This document shows positions 3,861 to 43,777 of a stretch of DNA of 64,000 bases, one piece after another (the first letter of the stretch is position 1; each line of letters opens with the position of its first letter). Under the pieces are notes generated by a model. It saw only the letters and a program-made list of their open reading frames with translations. It ran no database searches and was not told the DNA's origin. The translations under genes were made by a program, and so were the position numbers. Source of the stretch: Patescibacteria group bacterium (GTDB taxonomy: Bacteria; Patescibacteriota; Minisyncoccia; Phycocordibacterales; WO2-35-19); NCBI GenBank assembly GCA_038064735.1, contig JBBTSI010000001.1:22012-86011 (forward strand), written 5' to 3'.

Positions 3861-5114
3861 CTATATAATTTTGATTTCAGGAACAGGTACGATGAATTTC
3901 ACACCTTTTTTCCTCAAGTCGCTTTCTTTGACCAATATTTCTTTGGCATAATTCCACGCCAAAATGAGAATATAATCAGGCCGTTCCTCTTTCATATATT
4001 CGGGGGGCATGATTGGGATGTGAGTACCGGGGGTAAATTTACCTTGTTTATATGGAGTGGTGTCAACGATATAATCCAACAAATCTTGTCTAATACCACA
4101 ATATTGGAGCATAGTGTTGCCTTTGGCAGCACATCCGTAGCCGATGATTTTTTTGTTTTGTTTTTTCAAATCGGCAAGCATTTTTAACAAATCACTTTTC
4201 ATTTTTTGAGGAACCAAGCCGAATTTTTTATATAATTTTGAATCGTGAAAACCGTTTTCTTTTTCTTCTTCGATCATTTTGACTACCGTTTTCTTGATTT
4301 TGTGAATTCCATTATTATGGCTGGCAAAAACTCTTAGAGATCCGCCTTGCGTATTTACTTTTATAACATCAAAAATTTGCAGTTCCCATTTTTGTAAAAG
4401 ATTTATAAGGGGTGAAAGTGAAAAATAGCAGATGTGTTCGTGATAAGTATTATCAAATTCATTTTTACCTATCAAATCGGCGAGATATTGGACTTCAAAC
4501 ACGAAAACCCCGTCTCCATCAAGGAGTTCTTTTACTCCAGCCAGTATGCCGTGTATATCATCGGTATGAGCCAAAACGTTGTTGGCGGTGACCACTCCCA
4601 TTTTGCCGTATTTTTTGGAAATTTTTTGGGCTTCATTTAAACCAAAAAAAATAGGCAGGGTAGGGATACCATTTTGGTTGGCAGTTTTGGCAATGTTTTT
4701 AGCCGGGTCCACACCTAAAATTTTTGTTCCAAATTGCTCAAAACATTTAAGTAAAAATCCGTCGTTACTACCTATGTCAAATACGTATTGCTTGGTTTGT
4801 GAAGGAAATTTTTCAAAAACATCTTCGGCATATTTTTTGAAATGCTCATGTAGAGGTTGTGAGGCTCTCGTGAAGTATCCGTAATATTCAAAAAGAGCTT
4901 TCCTGTCTACCCAGTCAGTCAGCTGGGCCAAATGGCAATTTGGGCAATAAGAGACTGAGAGTGGAAATTTTATTTCGGCTTTGTTCAAATCAACTTTGTT
5001 CAAATATGAATTGGCGGGTGCACTTTTGCCTAAATCTAAGTATTTTATGAGGCCTTTCTTTCGACAGGCGATACAAGACCGGCTTTTTTTGATTTTAATT
5101 TTGCTTTTTGGCAT
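3861..5114 (-). CDS. SAM-dependent C-methyltransferase, NDP-sugar C-methyltransferase-like (Zn-ribbon + class I MTase + C-MTase C-terminal domain)
   Basis: N-terminal Cys4 motif (CIACRKK...CPNCH), central MTase region (VFDIGSNDGFLL) and C-terminal GYGCAAKGNT...DTTPYKQGKFTPGTHIPI, which resembles the TylCIII/EryBIII-type C-methyltransferase C-terminal domain. Confidence 0.6.
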   Translation of the reverse strand: MPKSKIKIKKSRSCIACRKKGLIKYLDLGKSAPANSYLNKVDLNKAEIKFPLSVSYCPNCHLAQLTDWVDRKALFEYYGYFTRASQPLHEHFKKYAEDVFEKFPSQTKQYVFDIGSNDGFLLKCFEQFGTKILGVDPAKNIAKTANQNGIPTLPIFFGLNEAQKISKKYGKMGVVTANNVLAHTDDIHGILAGVKELLDGDGVFVFEVQYLADLIGKNEFDNTYHEHICYFSLSPLINLLQKWELQIFDVIKVNTQGGSLRVFASHNNGIHKIKKTVVKMIEEEKENGFHDSKLYKKFGLVPQKMKSDLLKMLADLKKQNKKIIGYGCAAKGNTMLQYCGIRQDLLDYIVDTTPYKQGKFTPGTHIPIMPPEYMKEERPDYILILAWNYAKEILVKESDLRKKGVKFIVPVPEIKII

Positions 5115-31329: not shown

Positions 31330-31367
31330 CTAGTTTAAAAATTCTTTCTCGTCATAAGTTTAAAAAT

Positions 31368-31426
31368 GCACGGATATTTTCTTGCTAGAAAATTCCTCGT
31401 GCTCGCTTCAGTCAAGCTCGCAAGGC
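31368..31426. repeat. 59-nt intergenic repeat element, copy 1 (second copy at 43696..43754)
   Basis: gcacggatattttcttgctagaaaattcctcgtgctcgcttcagtcaagctcgcaaggca, near-identical to the copy between mraY and ftsW. Confidence 0.6.
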
Positions 31427-31455
31427 ATTTTAAAACTTACGACCACGACGAATTT

Positions 31456-31728
31456 TTAAACTACACTAGCGACTTTTTTGGTGACGGTAGTGCCGTCGAA
31501 GTGAACTTTTCTTTTGGAAGACATTTTGACTTTGCCATCTTTGAGAGCGAAAAGGGTATAATCTCGGCCTTGTCCGACACCGTTACCTGGGATTACTTTT
31601 GAGCCTCTTTGGCGCACGATAATAGAGCCCACTTGGCAGGTGCTTCCATCTGAGAGCTTAATACCCAAGTATTTTGGATTTGAATCTCTTCCGTTTTTAG
31701 TTGTTCCGGCGGCTTTTTTATGGGCCAT
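31456..31728 (-). CDS. rpmA: 50S ribosomal protein L27
   Basis: [24 protein letters not shown]...GSIIVRQRG is the canonical L27 sequence. 90 aa. Confidence 0.9.
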
Positions 31729-31811
31729 TTAAGTAAATTAAAAACTGCTATAATTAATTGCAGGTATCTAGAGTATAAGACAAAGCTTTAAAAAATGCAA
31801 GGTTTAAATTT

Positions 31812-32258
31812 ATGGAAGAAGAATACATAAAATCAGAGGATTTTGGGGATTTAAAAGGGGAGAGTTGGAAGGCCAAGTTTGAGGCTTTTTTGAATAGTCG
31901 TTATTTTGTTGCGGTAGCACTGGTTTTGATTGCTATAATAGCTTTTTCTTTAGGTAGGATTTCGGGATTGCAAGATAAAAGGGAGCCGGTGAGAGTGATT
32001 TCTGGGGGTGGGGAAGTAAAGGGGGTTTCTGATATCGCCCCCCAGCCCCCCTCTTATGTTAAGAGGGGGGAAGAACAAGCAATCTCTCCAGTAAATTCAG
32101 GCAGTGTTGTAGCTTCAAAAAGTGGTACCAAATACCACTACCCATGGTGTGCTGGAGCCAAGCAAATTTCTCCTAAAAATCTTATTACTTTCAACTCTAT
32201 TGAAGAGGCTAGAGCCAAAGGTTACACTCCAGCCAGCAATTGCAAAGGTCTTAAGTAA
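31812..32258 (+). CDS. Hypothetical membrane-anchored protein with a C-terminal Cys-containing motif
   Basis: Single TM, then ...KYHYPWCAGAKQISPKNLITFNSIEEARAKGYTPASNCKGLK, a YHxxxC...GYxP(A)xxC pattern reminiscent of small extracytoplasmic metal- or DNA-binding domains. Domain identity uncertain. Confidence 0.3.
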   Translation: MEEEYIKSEDFGDLKGESWKAKFEAFLNSRYFVAVALVLIAIIAFSLGRISGLQDKREPVRVISGGGEVKGVSDIAPQPPSYVKRGEEQAISPVNSGSVVASKSGTKYHYPWCAGAKQISPKNLITFNSIEEARAKGYTPASNCKGLK

Positions 32259-32356
32259 TTATCCACAGAGAATATCTCTAGAGGTTTAATGTGGAGTATA
32301 ATAAATACAACTTATATAACTCAAATTATAGAATTTTAATAGTTTAAATTAAAAAA

Positions 32357-32920
32357 ATGCCACCAGAAATAAATACAAATCCACAACCTGTACCTGAATC
32401 AAAACCTCCGGTAATACCTCAAACAACACTCCCAACCAAAAATTTATTCAAAAAACCGGTTTTTCTATTATCTGTAATTCTGATCATTTTGATTGCTGTT
32501 GGTTTTGTAGGTCTTTTAAAATATAAACCTAGTGAATCTAAAAAAGAATTTGATTCAAAAAATCTCTTTGTTCGACAGGCTGAAAATGGGAAAGTTATTG
32601 AAGCTGTTCCACTTGGCTTGATAGTAGATGAAGAAGCACTAATATTAGCTTCATCAGAAAGAGCTTCTAGTCATTCAAGTTACCAAACTTTTGTTACCTC
32701 ATATAAGACTAAACTATCTCAAAAAGATTTAGAAAGTAAATATCAGGATTTTATCAAAAAAAATAATTTTAAAGTTATTAATGTTGCTACTAGTACAAAA
32801 TCTAGTTTTTCAATTTCTGCGATTTCTGAAGAGTCTAGCGAATCATTTTTTGTTAATTTGACTCGGTTGGATGATCAGCAAAATAGTATTGTTATGATTA
32901 TTTTTAATAAAAAGAAATGA
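32357..32920 (+). CDS. Hypothetical membrane-anchored protein
   Basis: Pro-rich N-terminus and a single TM. No recognisable domain. Its stop overlaps the next start (ATGA). Confidence 0.3.
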   Translation: MPPEINTNPQPVPESKPPVIPQTTLPTKNLFKKPVFLLSVILIILIAVGFVGLLKYKPSESKKEFDSKNLFVRQAENGKVIEAVPLGLIVDEEALILASSERASSHSSYQTFVTSYKTKLSQKDLESKYQDFIKKNNFKVINVATSTKSSFSISAISEESSESFFVNLTRLDDQQNSIVMIIFNKKK

Positions 32921-34542
32921 AAAAATCACTATTAATTATATTTTCTCTCATAATTTTGTTCAGTTTTATCTCCAAAGTTGAAGCTTTTCGTGATATTCCT
33001 GCTGTTCCTATACCTTATCCAGTTAGCTTCGAATTGGAAGCGAATTGTACTTCTGGTTTTGAACCTACTTGTTTTGCTCTATTTGATTCACTGAATATAG
33101 CTTTTTCTTCTACCTTCAGTTTATATGAAGACATATTTGGTAAAGAATATGTTTCTTCTAATTCTATACCATTGCCAGTACCTTCTCCGTTTATATACGT
33201 TTACGGTAGTGATATTGTTCCCTCTGGATTTGGATATTACACTGATCAGTATAACGTTTTTATGTCATTTGATGCTGCTGAAAATGATTATGGCAATACT
33301 ACTCCTATGACAATATATTCACCAAAGACTACCTCTCAAGATATAGGAAATCTGAATTGTTGGAATGAATGCACCGGATTTCCTTCAAATAGTAAATATT
33401 GCGGTTCACCAAGTACTTGGCAAGTTTATTCAAGGACAGTTTCGTCTCCTCCTTCTCGACAAATATCCTGTAGTTATTTAAATGGTGGTGTTGGTTATGG
33501 GTTCCTTGATACTGTTACTAGTAATGTTCTTGTTACTCTTTGTGAATTCGGTGTCCCTCTTGGCAATCAACGTTGCCCTGATTTTCCAAGTATAACTGCT
33601 CCAGTTTCGGTAACCACAGGCACTGCTGCTAATATTTCTTGGGCTGTTCAAAATACTAGATTGCCAGGTGATTTATCAGACTTTATCTCTAGTTGCAAAG
33701 TAACTTCTTCACCGAATGTTGGAGAATGGACAGCTCTTTCTGGTAGCGCTGCTCCAGTTTTAAATGCTGATACAACCTTTACTCTAACTTGTACTAACAA
33801 GTTCGGGAGAGATTTTCTTCCTAAACCTACTAGGACGGTGACGGTGACAGCACCTGTTGCAATAAATGGTTCTTGTGGTGCCACCGAAAATCTTTGTACT
33901 GCTGGCACTCCTAATGATATAGCTGATAATGCTACACATTATTTATGGCAGTGTTTGGGTGAAAACGGTGGTATTGGTGCCAGTTGTAGTTTGGTTAAAC
34001 CTGTTCCTCCTCCTATTACTTATGATCTTAGGGTCACTTCTTCAGTATCTAGCAATGTCCCTATGGTGGTCGTGCCTGGCAATGACGGTTCTACTACATT
34101 TACTAATACTTATAACAACAATACCCCTGTTGTTGTAACTGCTCCCGCTACAGCTTCGGGTAACAACTTTTCTAATTGGAACGGTTGCATTTCTTCTTTT
34201 GGGACAACTTGCAACGTAACTATGGATTCTAACAAAACCATTACGGCTGTTTATACTCCTCCAAATGTCAGTGTTTCAGTGGTTGTGAAGACGGCATACG
34301 GAGTAGTCAAAAGTGATATTGGTGGTATAGATTGCGGGACCACTTGTAGTGCTTCGTATCCTCCCGGCACTGTTATCACACTTACCGAATATCCTAATCC
34401 AAAAAGAATATTTAAAGAATGGAGTGGAGTCACATGTAGTGGCTTAGGGGAGACCCAAAGAACTCCAAAATGCACATTTACAGTCAATGGCCAAACTGTC
34501 TATGCTGACTTTACCATAGACCCAAGTTATGTAGAGTTTTAA
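32917..34542 (+). CDS. Large secreted Cys-rich protein, paralog A, with C-terminal InlB-B-repeat-like (GxDCGxxCxxxYxxGTxVxLT...W.G..C) domain
   Basis: Signal peptide MKKSLLIIFSLIILFSFISKVEAF. Central CEFGVPLGNQRCPDFPSITAPVSVTTGTAANISW. C-terminal SDIGGIDCGTTCSASYPPGTVITLTEYPNPKRIFKEWSGVTC...VYADF. Confidence 0.5.
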   Translation: MKKSLLIIFSLIILFSFISKVEAFRDIPAVPIPYPVSFELEANCTSGFEPTCFALFDSLNIAFSSTFSLYEDIFGKEYVSSNSIPLPVPSPFIYVYGSDIVPSGFGYYTDQYNVFMSFDAAENDYGNTTPMTIYSPKTTSQDIGNLNCWNECTGFPSNSKYCGSPSTWQVYSRTVSSPPSRQISCSYLNGGVGYGFLDTVTSNVLVTLCEFGVPLGNQRCPDFPSITAPVSVTTGTAANISWAVQNTRLPGDLSDFISSCKVTSSPNVGEWTALSGSAAPVLNADTTFTLTCTNKFGRDFLPKPTRTVTVTAPVAINGSCGATENLCTAGTPNDIADNATHYLWQCLGENGGIGASCSLVKPVPPPITYDLRVTSSVSSNVPMVVVPGNDGSTTFTNTYNNNTPVVVTAPATASGNNFSNWNGCISSFGTTCNVTMDSNKTITAVYTPPNVSVSVVVKTAYGVVKSDIGGIDCGTTCSASYPPGTVITLTEYPNPKRIFKEWSGVTCSGLGETQRTPKCTFTVNGQTVYADFTIDPSYVEF

Positions 34543-34583
34543 TTATTAATTGGAGTGACTGATCTGATTAAAATCTGGACAAA

Positions 34584-37235
34584 ATGAAAAAAACTCTTCT
34601 AATTATATTTTGTCTCATAATTTTATTAGGCTTCATACCTAAAGCCGAAGCCTTTTATACCGTATCAAATGGAGCTATTGAATATCCTGCAGATTTAGAT
34701 TTATCAGACCCAAGTGCAATGGATCAAGTGATTAGATTTTTATCTTGTGCTTCTGGTTTTGAAAGTGTATGTCTTTCTTTACAGCAGGATTTATTTAGTG
34801 CAGTGTTGAATAGGTTTAATCAATATTATGATATTTTCTACAATTTTGGGAGAGGATATTGGACTGATAGGTACTATGTTATGAGGTCATTTGATGCTGC
34901 TGATGCTGATATCGGTAATCCGACTGTAATGGATCCTTATTCCTCAGAAGCTTTAATGACACCTACAAGTTGTAGTCAGGGTAGTGAATGTAGTAATTTA
35001 CCTTATTTAGGTAATGCTTGTGGTTCTTGGCCTAATCAATCTCTGGGATTTACAAGAATACCTGGTCTTACCAGAAGTATGGATTGTACAACTCTTGGTG
35101 GTGGTGTTGGTCATGCCATGACTGATGTTTATATAGGAATGGTTCCCGTTACCACTTGTGAATTTGGTGTACCTTTAGGTAACAGAAGATGCCCTAATTT
35201 ACCAGATATAAATGGTCCAGCTTCAGTGCCTTCTGGTACTACTGCAACTATTTCTTGGACTACTGAAGATAGTTTTCTGCCAGATAGTTTATTAAGATTT
35301 ATTAATAATTGTACCGTTACTTCTTCTCCTTTTGTTGGGAATTGGTCTGGACTTTCAGGAACTCAATCACCAGTTTTAAATGCTAATACAACCTTCACTT
35401 TAACTTGTACCAGTAATCTTCCAAGTGGAACTCCTTTTATAAAATCTAAAACGGTAAATGTCACCGCTCCCGTCACCGTCTCTGTCACCGCCACCACTCC
35501 ATACAACACCACTCCTAGTACCAATGTGCTATTTGCATATGTACCCACTACCAATACCGGTACAACTGAATGCAGACTTTTGGACAATGTTTCCTCTCCT
35601 TTAACCGCATATCAAGCTGGCAGTCCAATCACATATTCTTCACCTAGTGCAGTGGGTTCATATGGATATTATGTGCAGTGTCGGAATACAGTGACCACTT
35701 CAGCTATTGGAACTTCAAATTTAATTACGGTGAATACAGCTTGTTTAGCTGGTAGTGATTTTGTAGCCGGAGCTTGTCGAGTGAGACCAACTATCACTGC
35801 TTCAACAGGGGCCAATGGATCAGTGATTCCAAGTGGAGTATCAACTGTAGTTTATGGTTCCAATCTAACATATACCATTACTCCAAGTGCCGGATATCAA
35901 GTGGCTAATGTTTTAGTTGACGGCAGTTCAGTGGGCACAGTGGGCACATATACTTTTTCTAATATTATCGCTAACCATACAATCAGCGCTACCTTCACAG
36001 CTTCAGCTTGTGCTAACGGAGCCACTAACCCTCCAACTTGTACCACTTGTGTAGCTGGTTCAGCCATAATCGCGGGGATATGTACTCCCGTCACCGTCTC
36101 TGTCACCGCCACCACTCCATACAACACCACTCCTAGTACCAATGTGCTATTTGCATATGTACCCACTACCAATACCGGTACAACTGAATGCAGACTTTTG
36201 GACAATGTTTCCTCTCCTTTAACCGCATATCAAGCTGGCAGTCCAATCACATATTCTTCACCTAGTGCAGTGGGTTCATATGGATATTATGTGCAGTGTC
36301 GGAATACTACTTATACAACTATTACAGGGAATTCTGGATTGATTACTGTTAATGTTGCTTTAGCTCCAGTTGCCCCTTCTGTCACCGATTCCCCAGCTAC
36401 TTCCATAACAACTTCTAGTGCTGTTTTAAATGCTGAAGTCACTTCTCTTGGAGTTCCTGCTTCTTCCATCTCAGCTCGAGGTATTTGTTACAGCACCAGT
36501 CCTTCTCCAAGTTTACTTAATGGAGCTAACTGTAATATTAATGGGGCGGTAACCCTAGGAGCATTTACTAGAGCTATAGCTGGTCTGACTTCTGGTACTA
36601 CTTATTATTATCGTGGATATGCTACTAATGGAACTGGTACTGGATATTCTGCAGGTGGATCGTTTACTTCTAATGTAGCTGTTACTACATACAATCTTCA
36701 AATTAATTCTCTTACTCCTGGTTCTGGTGTTTCTATGACTGTTGTACCTGTTGATAGAATTGGTAATGCTGATGGCTCTACCGCATTTACTCGCACCTAT
36801 AACAATAATACTTCTGTTTTTGTCACAGCTCCTGCCACTGCTCCTGGGGGTAATAATTTCTCTAATTGGGGTGTTACTGATTGTAATTCTATTACGGGTA
36901 CTTATACTTGTGAAGTTATTATGAATGGTCCCAAAATTATTAGAGCTGTTTATGCTTCTCCTAATGTTTCTCTAAATGTTGTCGTAAAAACGGCACACGG
37001 AAGAGTAACAAGCGATAGTGGTGGCATAGATTGTGGGACCACTTGTGTTGCTTCATATCCTCCTAATACTGTTGTTATACTTACCGAAACACCAAACGCC
37101 AATAGAAAATTTTGGAGATGGAGAGGGCCCATTTGTAATGAGGGTAATCAAACATCAACAACTTGCACGTTTATTGTTGCTGGTCAAACTGTGTATGCAG
37201 ACTTTGCTATAAGTCCTGGTTATAAAGAGTTCTAG
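34584..37235 (+). CDS. Large secreted Cys-rich protein, paralog B (883 aa), with exact internal duplication and the same C-terminal domain
   Basis: Signal peptide MKKTLLIIFCLIILLGFIPKAEAF. Shares CEFGVPLGNRRCPNLPDINGPASVPSGTTATISW and the C-terminal SDSGGIDCGTTCVASYPPNTVVILTETPNANRKFWRWRGPIC...VYADF domain with paralog A. Confidence 0.5.
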   Translation: MKKTLLIIFCLIILLGFIPKAEAFYTVSNGAIEYPADLDLSDPSAMDQVIRFLSCASGFESVCLSLQQDLFSAVLNRFNQYYDIFYNFGRGYWTDRYYVMRSFDAADADIGNPTVMDPYSSEALMTPTSCSQGSECSNLPYLGNACGSWPNQSLGFTRIPGLTRSMDCTTLGGGVGHAMTDVYIGMVPVTTCEFGVPLGNRRCPNLPDINGPASVPSGTTATISWTTEDSFLPDSLLRFINNCTVTSSPFVGNWSGLSGTQSPVLNANTTFTLTCTSNLPSGTPFIKSKTVNVTAPVTVSVTATTPYNTTPSTNVLFAYVPTTNTGTTECRLLDNVSSPLTAYQAGSPITYSSPSAVGSYGYYVQCRNTVTTSAIGTSNLITVNTACLAGSDFVAGACRVRPTITASTGANGSVIPSGVSTVVYGSNLTYTITPSAGYQVANVLVDGSSVGTVGTYTFSNIIANHTISATFTASACANGATNPPTCTTCVAGSAIIAGICTPVTVSVTATTPYNTTPSTNVLFAYVPTTNTGTTECRLLDNVSSPLTAYQAGSPITYSSPSAVGSYGYYVQCRNTTYTTITGNSGLITVNVALAPVAPSVTDSPATSITTSSAVLNAEVTSLGVPASSISARGICYSTSPSPSLLNGANCNINGAVTLGAFTRAIAGLTSGTTYYYRGYATNGTGTGYSAGGSFTSNVAVTTYNLQINSLTPGSGVSMTVVPVDRIGNADGSTAFTRTYNNNTSVFVTAPATAPGGNNFSNWGVTDCNSITGTYTCEVIMNGPKIIRAVYASPNVSLNVVVKTAHGRVTSDSGGIDCGTTCVASYPPNTVVILTETPNANRKFWRWRGPICNEGNQTSTTCTFIVAGQTVYADFAISPGYKEF
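35467..35689 (+). repeat. 223-bp exact in-frame direct repeat, copy 1 (copy 2 at 36085..36307)
   Basis: The nucleotide string ctcccgtcaccgtctctgtcaccgccaccactccatacaac...gtgcagtgtcggaatac is identical at both positions. It encodes PVTVSVTATTPYNTTPSTNVLFAYVPTTNTGTTECRLLDNVSSPLTAYQAGSPITYSSPSAVGSYGYYVQCRNT twice. Confidence 0.85.
36085..36307 (+). repeat. 223-bp exact in-frame direct repeat, copy 2
   Basis: Identical to 35467..35689, offset 618 bp. Confidence 0.85.
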
Positions 37236-43649: not shown

Positions 43650-43695
43650 GGTTTTATTTTAACATAACAAAACATAAAATAGCTTCTTTCGCTTT

Positions 43696-43754
43696 GCACG
43701 GATATTTTTCTGCTGAAAAATTCCTCGTGCTCGCTTCAGTCAAGCTCGCAAGGC
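43696..43754. repeat. 59-nt intergenic repeat element, copy 2 (between mraY stop and ftsW start, where murD would normally lie)
   Basis: gcacggatatttttctgctgaaaaattcctcgtgctcgcttcagtcaagctcgcaaggca: differs from copy 1 only by small indels and substitutions in the 5' half. Confidence 0.6.
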
Positions 43755-43777
43755 ACACTCAAGAACTATTTTATGTT

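Follow-up and report, generated by a model that had tools for sequence, protein, structure and literature searches.

The window analysed here, a stretch of 64,000 nucleotides (nt) from contig JBBTSI010000001.1 of a Patescibacteria group bacterium, contains a gene for a secreted protein of 883 amino acids (aa) in which one 223-nt segment occurs twice without a single difference, and the question raised by this locus is whether a new copy has recently been inserted or whether two long-established copies have recently been made alike. We posit the latter, namely recent intragenic gene conversion between two old copies of a protein module rather than a fresh duplication, and give this explanation a probability of roughly 0.7; the mechanism (gene conversion, presumably RecA-dependent) and any functional benefit are what we infer from the findings below. 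The gene product is best explained as a lineage-specific N-terminal domain followed by beta-sandwich domains strung into a stalk-like chain, in which two modules (A1 and A2) stand on either side of a spacer domain (B).

No mismatch separates the two copies (Table 1) at any of the 223 positions, and the very next base on either side already differs. Copy 2 starts 618 nt (206 codons) after copy 1, and the host open reading frame (ORF) reads both in frame, as residues 295–369 and 501–575, so that the exact, in-frame 223-bp repeat encoding a Thr/Ser-rich module reported in an earlier note on this DNA was confirmed on re-checking. The pair is the sole long exact repeat in the window, and tblastn found no third copy of the module there. 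Compared at an offset of 618 nt, sliding identity is ~25% on the 5' side of the tract, 100% inside it and 36–63% over the next ~50 nt, after which it falls to background; immediately 3' of the tract, in the two segments designated tail1 and tail2, identity amounts to 25 of 51 nt (49%) and 9 of 17 aa. Chance is excluded as the source of the identity, as evidenced by the distribution of mismatches (0/223 in the tract, 26/51 in the 3' flank; Fisher p = 1.4e-22) and by the probability of a perfect 223-nt run at the 60–69% nucleotide identity typical of module pairs in relatives (1e-36 to 1e-49). The same mismatch counts describe a mosaic tract with abrupt boundaries inside homologous sequence, as is characteristic of gene conversion. 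Nothing notable was seen among short tandem repeats, promoters and terminators, and Rfam gave no match in the gene region.

Where the identity ends is informative, as the 223-nt tract encodes the first 74 residues of an immunoglobulin (Ig)/FN3-like domain of ~91 aa and not the whole domain. A hidden Markov model (HMM) of the module made from relatives covers residues 297–385 and 503–591, extending past the identical tract, and an AlphaFold2 (AF2) model based on a 67-sequence alignment is a nine-strand beta-sandwich with a mean pLDDT (predicted local distance difference test score) of 90, the last two strands of which (residues 83–85 and 89–93) lie beyond the identical part. Fold prediction, proposed earlier as a check, thus returned a confident Ig/FN3-like beta-sandwich, while the 74-aa repeat itself falls short of the complete domain. 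Foldseek against the PDB matched the model to generic FN3 and Ig-like domains only (template modelling score, TM, 0.55–0.65; 12–19% sequence identity), a structural agreement that together with the confident model identifies the fold. The likeness to the CelAly B1 domain (9kvu) and the CbhA FN3-like modules (3pdd) is at fold level (TM 0.59–0.65), and matches this generic at 12–19% sequence identity do not permit transfer of function.

At the sequence level the module stands largely alone. It has no Pfam match even at E ≤ 10, including to PF18998, and its profile found no relative among PDB sequences. An exhaustive phmmer search of 1.84 billion representative proteins gave 79 matches at E ≤ 1e-3 (counted as clusters at 50% identity), none of them >74% identical, and a word-index search with the module returned one fragment only. 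Scanning genome contigs with a 10-sequence module alignment recovered six genome loci, all from Patescibacteria metagenome-assembled genomes (MAGs) labelled Saccharibacteria, Paceibacterota, WWE3, Nomurabacteria or 'Patescibacteria group'; the same scan with the whole 883-aa protein found nothing. Two cysteines are invariant across the 67 module sequences, and distant homologs carry 1, 2 or 4 module copies in many architectures. The module is therefore a rare, previously uncatalogued Ig/FN3-like family of ~91 aa with one conserved Cys pair.

Relatives of the window gene, referred to below by protein (P) or contig (L), show that its layout is not private to it. The window, P0131/L006, P0125/L007 and P0116 share an arrangement of a module, 117 residues between HMM envelopes and a second module. 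In the window the spacer between A1 and A2 measures 115 aa and comprises a Cys-linker, an InlB-type B-repeat and a second Cys-linker. The arrangement in L007 is A-B-A-B', and in L011 the module and spacer unit forms a tandem (B-A-B-A). Orthologous contexts exist in other lineages for both module positions, which indicates that the module pair is old: the order A, tail1, CxxGSDFVxGxC, B-repeat, linker2 recurs in P0131/L006, P0125/L007, L011 and P0116, and the order linker2, A, tail2, FN3 in L003/P0120 and L014. The spacers of the A-B-A lineages, including the window, are only 57–72% identical to one another, and the A-B-A arrangement thus predates the split of these lineages.

Two side observations on these architectures can be added. 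Cys-bounded linkers of the forms C-x2-G-[ST]-[DN]-[FW]-x-[GS]-x2-C (35742–35777 in the window) and SAC-x-NGATNPPTC-x2-C...C (36003–36086) recur at domain junctions of the protein family, and in L011 (52–1289) the boundary of a perfect 618-nt tandem unit falls inside a Cys-linker (...C-A-[SA]-G); judging from these sequence patterns, the Cys-linkers may be joints for domain shuffling. Separately, in four unrelated metagenome contigs (L003, L004, L005 and L006) a giant module-bearing surface protein gene lies directly upstream of tuf, and the beginning of the S10 ribosomal-protein operon can be recognised downstream in three of these contigs (L003, L005 and L006), a synteny not found for the window gene.

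Despite this old scaffold, the paired modules of one protein resemble each other more than they resemble those of other lineages. The amino acid identity of A1 and A2 within a protein is 91% in the window, 94% in P0131 and 90% in P0125, and within-protein pairs reach 90–100% in the window, L006, L007 and L011, whereas modules compared between lineages are 45–64% identical. P0116, the A-B-A pair of which was compared at the protein level only, retains diverged copies (57%). The homogenised tracts, which are of different ages, also have different boundaries among the window, L006, L007 and L011: 223 nt at 100% in the window; 620 nt at 100% in L011, which is exactly 2.0 units of a 618-nt period; ~375 nt in L006, with a module core of ~97%, a linker of ~75% and a tail of ~91%; and ~420–530 nt at 92–96% in L007, extending into the second B-repeat. 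Both the identity matrix and a nearest-neighbour analysis therefore show copies that are closer within a lineage than orthologs are between lineages, on an architecture that is older, as expected under concerted evolution. Combined with the mosaic boundaries, this pattern argues for repeated intragenic gene conversion. Homogenisation appears to be a property of the spaced pair and not of the module family, because adjacent tandem module pairs in at least 15 other proteins are only 38–68% identical and show position-specific orthology, the nearest neighbour of each copy being the same-position copy of another protein.

A further observation concerns P0125 (1972 aa), in which a module copy 3.6 kb upstream is 82% identical in nucleotides to the homogenised pair (L007 490–789 versus 4132–4431), while a fourth copy lying between that distant copy and the pair is only 58–62% identical in amino acids. 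From this sequence comparison, exchange seems to act over kilobases within one gene.

The proposed course of events would begin with an old A-B-A layout in which A1 and A2 flanked the 115-aa spacer. A recent non-reciprocal homologous recombination (conversion within the gene, or a repair or template-switch event of equivalent effect) would then have written one module over the other, the copied tract running from the 5' end of the A1/A2 homology to just past ...QCRNT, so that all differences over 223 nt vanished and conversion did not reach the last strand of either domain. Related proteins would have been homogenised independently, the module pair evolving in concert, and the identical DNA would in turn allow 618-nt (206-aa) units to be gained or lost by unequal recombination. 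The window represents the most recent such homogenisation event.

The same evidence bears on the simpler idea that one 223-bp segment is a new copy made inside the gene, too young to have diverged. Perfect identity and in-frame spacing are what a fresh duplication would leave, and the perfect tandem of the whole 618-nt unit in L011 demonstrates that duplications do occur in this family. However, a tandem of period 618 must repeat 618 nt (A-B-A-B) and only 223 nt repeat here (A-B-A-C), and a new copy would have had to land exactly before a diverged but homologous tail2 and after the linker that normally precedes modules, in a layout common to lineages with spacers only 57–72% identical. We consider a fresh duplication very unlikely, and the statement in the earlier note that the identity reflects a very recent duplication does not stand, given a tract that ends inside a domain, an A-B-A-C order and orthologous contexts for both module positions.

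Recombination with another gene would account for the boundary in a different way, by a crossover within the module that joined an array-type gene (A-B-A) to a different gene carrying A-tail2-FN3 and so made a hybrid, with the end of the identity as the crossover point. Domain shuffling is evident in the family from the many architectures in which 1, 2 or 4 module copies are found, and Cys-linkers are found repeatedly at junctions and, in L011, at the boundary of the repeat unit. Such a crossover and intragenic conversion look alike in the present data; we likewise consider it very unlikely, as no further module copy exists in the 64-kb window and the donor would itself have to be an already homogeneous A-B-A gene, which adds a step to conversion rather than replacing it.

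Diversity-generating retroelements are common in genomes of the candidate phyla radiation (CPR), and the length of the repeat is in their general range, which invites a reading of the two copies as the template repeat (TR) and variable repeat (VR) of such an element or of another targeted-variation system. This has next to no probability: the copies are identical and both in frame in one beta-sandwich gene with an Ig/FN3-like fold, the mismatches between the 92% identical copies of relatives show no adenine bias, and the precomputed Pfam matches of the neighbouring genes contain no reverse-transcriptase domain, several neighbours being without any Pfam match. We rejected this candidate for lack of a TR/VR relationship, as judged by the identical copies, the absent A-bias and the absence of a reverse transcriptase from the precomputed neighbour matches.

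How far the repeat can be trusted as assembled is a question of its own. Logan contig ERR3858118_7630 (L009) is 100% identical to window positions 31401–35496, its end lying precisely 30 nt inside copy 1. A de Bruijn graph with k = 31 breaks where the next k-mer has two predecessors, and the contig thus ends where a true repeat boundary would be expected to stop it, so that an independent assembly sees the same boundary. An exact look-up of the protein fragments that k = 31 unitigs would give (X, A, B and C) retrieved none of the four, not even X, which exists on L009, and it carries no weight either way. An ENA contig, Hain_H43_02um_R3 (L010), presumably from groundwater judging by its name, is 100% identical to 32236–35261, and the same 883-aa protein is encoded in a GenBank MAG (MEK7634852.1) and in GCA_964366995.1, on contig CAYIVZ010000002.1 (245,939 bp), which also contains the window. 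It is possible that an (A-B)n-A array was collapsed to n = 1, or that copies of ~97–99% identity were smoothed by the assembler; we regard this as rather unlikely, and it would be compatible with concerted evolution, altering only copy number or exactness. In its favour, the 223-nt repeat is longer than usual k-mers and reads, the repeat is where the Logan k = 31 contig ends, the L011 and L014 contigs begin within or beside their own repeated regions, and the source assemblies have SPAdes- and MEGAHIT-style contig names. Against it, the graph X->A, A->B->A, A->C allows no chimera that places B outside the gene, so that the A-B-A order should be sound; the same product occurs in at least two deposited assemblies; and the 92–97% identical copies in L006 and L007 cannot be collapse artefacts, which makes the phenomenon biological. 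Short-read assemblies cannot give the true copy number at the locus.

Several considerations weigh against gene conversion of an old pair as set out above. The searched collections hold no close ortholog (>75% identity) that would display the pre-conversion state of the gene. Copies that have drifted as far apart as the P0116 pair would recombine only inefficiently, so that conversion must be recurrent, and independent re-duplication in each lineage would produce a similar outcome, if less parsimoniously. The evidence for exact identity and for copy number comes from assemblies probably built from short reads, in which bubble-popping could turn ~98–99% identity into 100% and an (A-B)n-A array of identical units would be written as n = 1 in a de Bruijn graph.

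Whether the homogenised pair also changes the length of the protein was addressed through its predicted products. The 206-aa unit does multiply, as the perfect two-unit tandem of L011 and the A-B-A-B' arrangement of L007 show, and its expansion or contraction in the window gene is plausible. The deletion (677 aa) and three-copy (1089 aa) products were absent on exact look-up in a collection of 15 billion proteins, a weak negative, as the organism is rare in public data and no close relatives are present in that collection. The earlier suggestion of a recombination substrate giving length variants of a surface protein thus retains its plausibility from the tandem of 2.0 units in L011 and from L007, while the variants it predicts were looked for and not found. 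A more far-reaching proposal, which we hold to be doubtful, is that module, B-repeat and module form a Patescibacteria-specific cassette variable in length or valency, in which selection would keep the modules identical, the B-repeat would avert misfolding and the number of units would vary, having been collapsed to n = 1 here. The selected trait may then be bivalency, through two identical binding sites, or a stalk of variable length on an episymbiotic cell surface.

The domains around the repeat are set out in Table 1. For the N-terminal orphan domain, the matches in 5.8 billion clusters are the upstream paralog and one JGI protein (P0203) only; it has no Pfam match, and its AF2 model from a 3-sequence alignment has a pLDDT <50, while the part of that model covering the adjoining Ig0 domain is a beta-sandwich of pLDDT ~90. 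The spacer, scanned as a segment, scores 24.5 bits with PF18998 (E 2.7e-5), above the gathering threshold of 23.6, and this B-repeat family (Flg_new_2) is thus matched by the spacer and, through the paralog, by the C-terminal region, and not by the duplicated module. A homology search with the whole protein is dominated by hundreds of B-repeat-rich proteins at 8–10% query coverage.

Table 1. Host gene, its parts and the upstream paralog (positions in nt of the window)
Feature	Position	Strand	Basis and remarks
Host gene, 883 aa, secreted multidomain protein (MEK7634852.1, 'hypothetical protein', Patescibacteria group bacterium MAG)	34584..37235	+	ORF list; exact protein on several NCBI and ENA assembly contigs
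Putative signal peptide MKKTLLIIFCLIILLGFIPKAEA, common to host protein and paralog	34584..34652	+	read from sequence, not from a predictor
Cys-rich N-terminal orphan domain, ending CEFGVPLGNRRCP	34653..35198	+	cluster search, Pfam, AF2
First Ig-like domain (Ig0), common to paralog and P0203	35199..35471	+	alignment; AF2; adjoins module copy 1 without a linker
Identical tract, copy 1 (first 74 residues of module A1)	35467..35689	+	encoded end ...YGYYVQCRNT
tail1, diverged last strand of module A1, VTTSAIGTSNLITVNTA	35690..35741	+	covered by module HMM and last AF2 strand
Cys-linker 1, CLAGSDFVAGAC	35742..35777	+	kept in L006, L007, L011, P0116
Spacer domain, divergent InlB B-repeat (Flg_new_2)	35778..36002	+	PF18998 segment scan
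Cys-linker 2, SACANGATNPPTCTTCVAGSAIIAGICT	36003..36086	+	precedes modules in P0116, L006, L007, L011, L003, L014
Identical tract, copy 2 (first 74 residues of module A2)	36085..36307	+	
tail2, diverged last strand of module A2, TYTTITGNSGLITVNVA	36308..36359	+	tail2-FN3 junction orthologous to L003, L014
FN3-like domain (...TTYYYRGYATNGTGTGYS...)	36360..36671	+	follows module in L003/P0120 and L014 too; weak Pfam hint
C-terminal region, two B-repeat-like domains, ending YKEF	36672..37235	+	60% identical to paralog (BLASTP); PF18998 in aligned part of paralog
Upstream paralog, 541 aa, without module	32917..34542	+	ORF list, BLASTP, PF18998

Comparison with the 541-aa paralog by BLASTP bears out the earlier description of two genes sharing their terminal parts, the longer one resembling the shorter with additional modules: the N-terminal ~300 aa are 40% identical, including the signal peptide and the motif CEFGVPLGN[QR]RCP, and the C-terminal 184 aa are 60% identical, the C-terminal half of the paralog matching PF18998 at 32.6 bits, above the Pfam threshold. 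Residues 297–696 of the host protein comprise A-B-A and the FN3-like domain, in place of which the paralog has a Cys-rich segment of ~50 aa. An ORF of 187 aa with one hydrophobic segment (32357–32920) overlaps the start of the paralog gene by 4 nt (ATGA), and on the contig encoding P0203 a small gene is paired with a gene for a large secreted protein twice in a row (185 and 387 aa, then 187 and 979 aa), which suggests that the small ORF and the large secreted protein form a functional two-gene unit.

The 883-aa protein is presumably located at the cell surface; no C-terminal wall or membrane anchor motif was recognised in it, the protein ending in ...PGYKEF. Both paralogs (37221–37235 and 34528–34542) and the distant homolog P0116 end in ...ADF.....Y[KVQ]EF-COOH, the giant module-bearing proteins of L003–L005 and L011 end in ...[IVF][KNI]E[NQ]-COOH, and no transmembrane segment or known sorting motif follows these endings, which may constitute an unrecognised C-terminal signal in Patescibacteria.

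The window contains two other sets of repeats. A 61-nt intergenic repeat (31367–31427 and 43695–43755) is 93% identical between its copies, with a 39-nt exact core (31389–31427 and 43717–43755); the first copy lies between rplI and rpmA, and the second occupies the space separating two cell-wall genes on the minus strand. Together with its flanks, the first copy folds into a stable hairpin structure (z = -4.06) without an Rfam match, and Logan contig L009 begins inside this repeat. Between 20004 and 27202 there is a tandem array of five paralogous secreted-protein genes (313–396 aa) with DNA tracts 73–88% identical, the proteins of which all end in DTT[AP]PSAPTGV[AE]VQ and constitute a second, older multigene family in the window.

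CPR organisms are thought to live attached to host cells, and to our knowledge almost nothing is known of CPR cell-surface biology. The locus offers a case of concerted evolution in a surface-protein gene of this radiation, real but ordinary: gene conversion is already well known, and no new mechanism is revealed. More specific to this group are the rarity of the module family (~79 clusters at 50% identity, without a Pfam or PDB relative by sequence) and a recurring 206-aa unit of module and spacer that is near-identical within genes in four lineages. The concerted, or 'horizontal', evolution of protein repeats has been described by Persi, Wolf and Koonin (2016, PMC5120217), and the window gene agrees with that work in having within-protein repeats that are closer to each other than to orthologous repeats of other lineages. 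It differs in that only a non-adjacent pair has been homogenised, in place of adjacent tandems, and in that the tract boundary falls inside a domain. Adjacent homologous domains tend to share <50% identity, a tendency thought to keep misfolding in check (Borgia et al. 2015, PMC4660218, as cited in PMC8201768). Adjacent modules in the present family are 38–68% identical and near-identical pairs are separated by another domain, a correlation only.

The closest known concept is the Periscope Protein class, membership of which is not established for the 883-aa protein. Periscope Proteins are surface proteins with stalks made of arrays of folded domains encoded by highly identical DNA, so that recombination can alter their length (Whelan et al. 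2021, PMC8201768); examples are the G5-E repeats of SasG/Aap, Rib and the SHIRT repeats of Sgo_0707 (PMC8201768). The likeness is that a non-repeat domain stands at the N-terminus of a secreted protein and small folded domains follow it in a chain, and that the relative L011 has a perfect two-unit array. In SasG, identical G5 domains are interleaved with E spacers, a pattern resembled by the identical modules interleaved with a B-repeat here. The window gene departs from the class in having two module copies only, with a spacer between them and identity over 1.36 units, and in belonging to an uncultured member of the Patescibacteria, with a module that is not among the described stalk domains. 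The stalks of Periscope Proteins are elongated and rod-like; the models made here cover a single module and the N-terminal part. Periscope Proteins also vary in repeat number from strain to strain and carry a C-terminal wall or membrane anchor, and for the 883-aa protein no length variant was found and no anchor motif recognised. If the number of module and spacer units does vary in populations, the Periscope Protein idea would extend to Patescibacteria.

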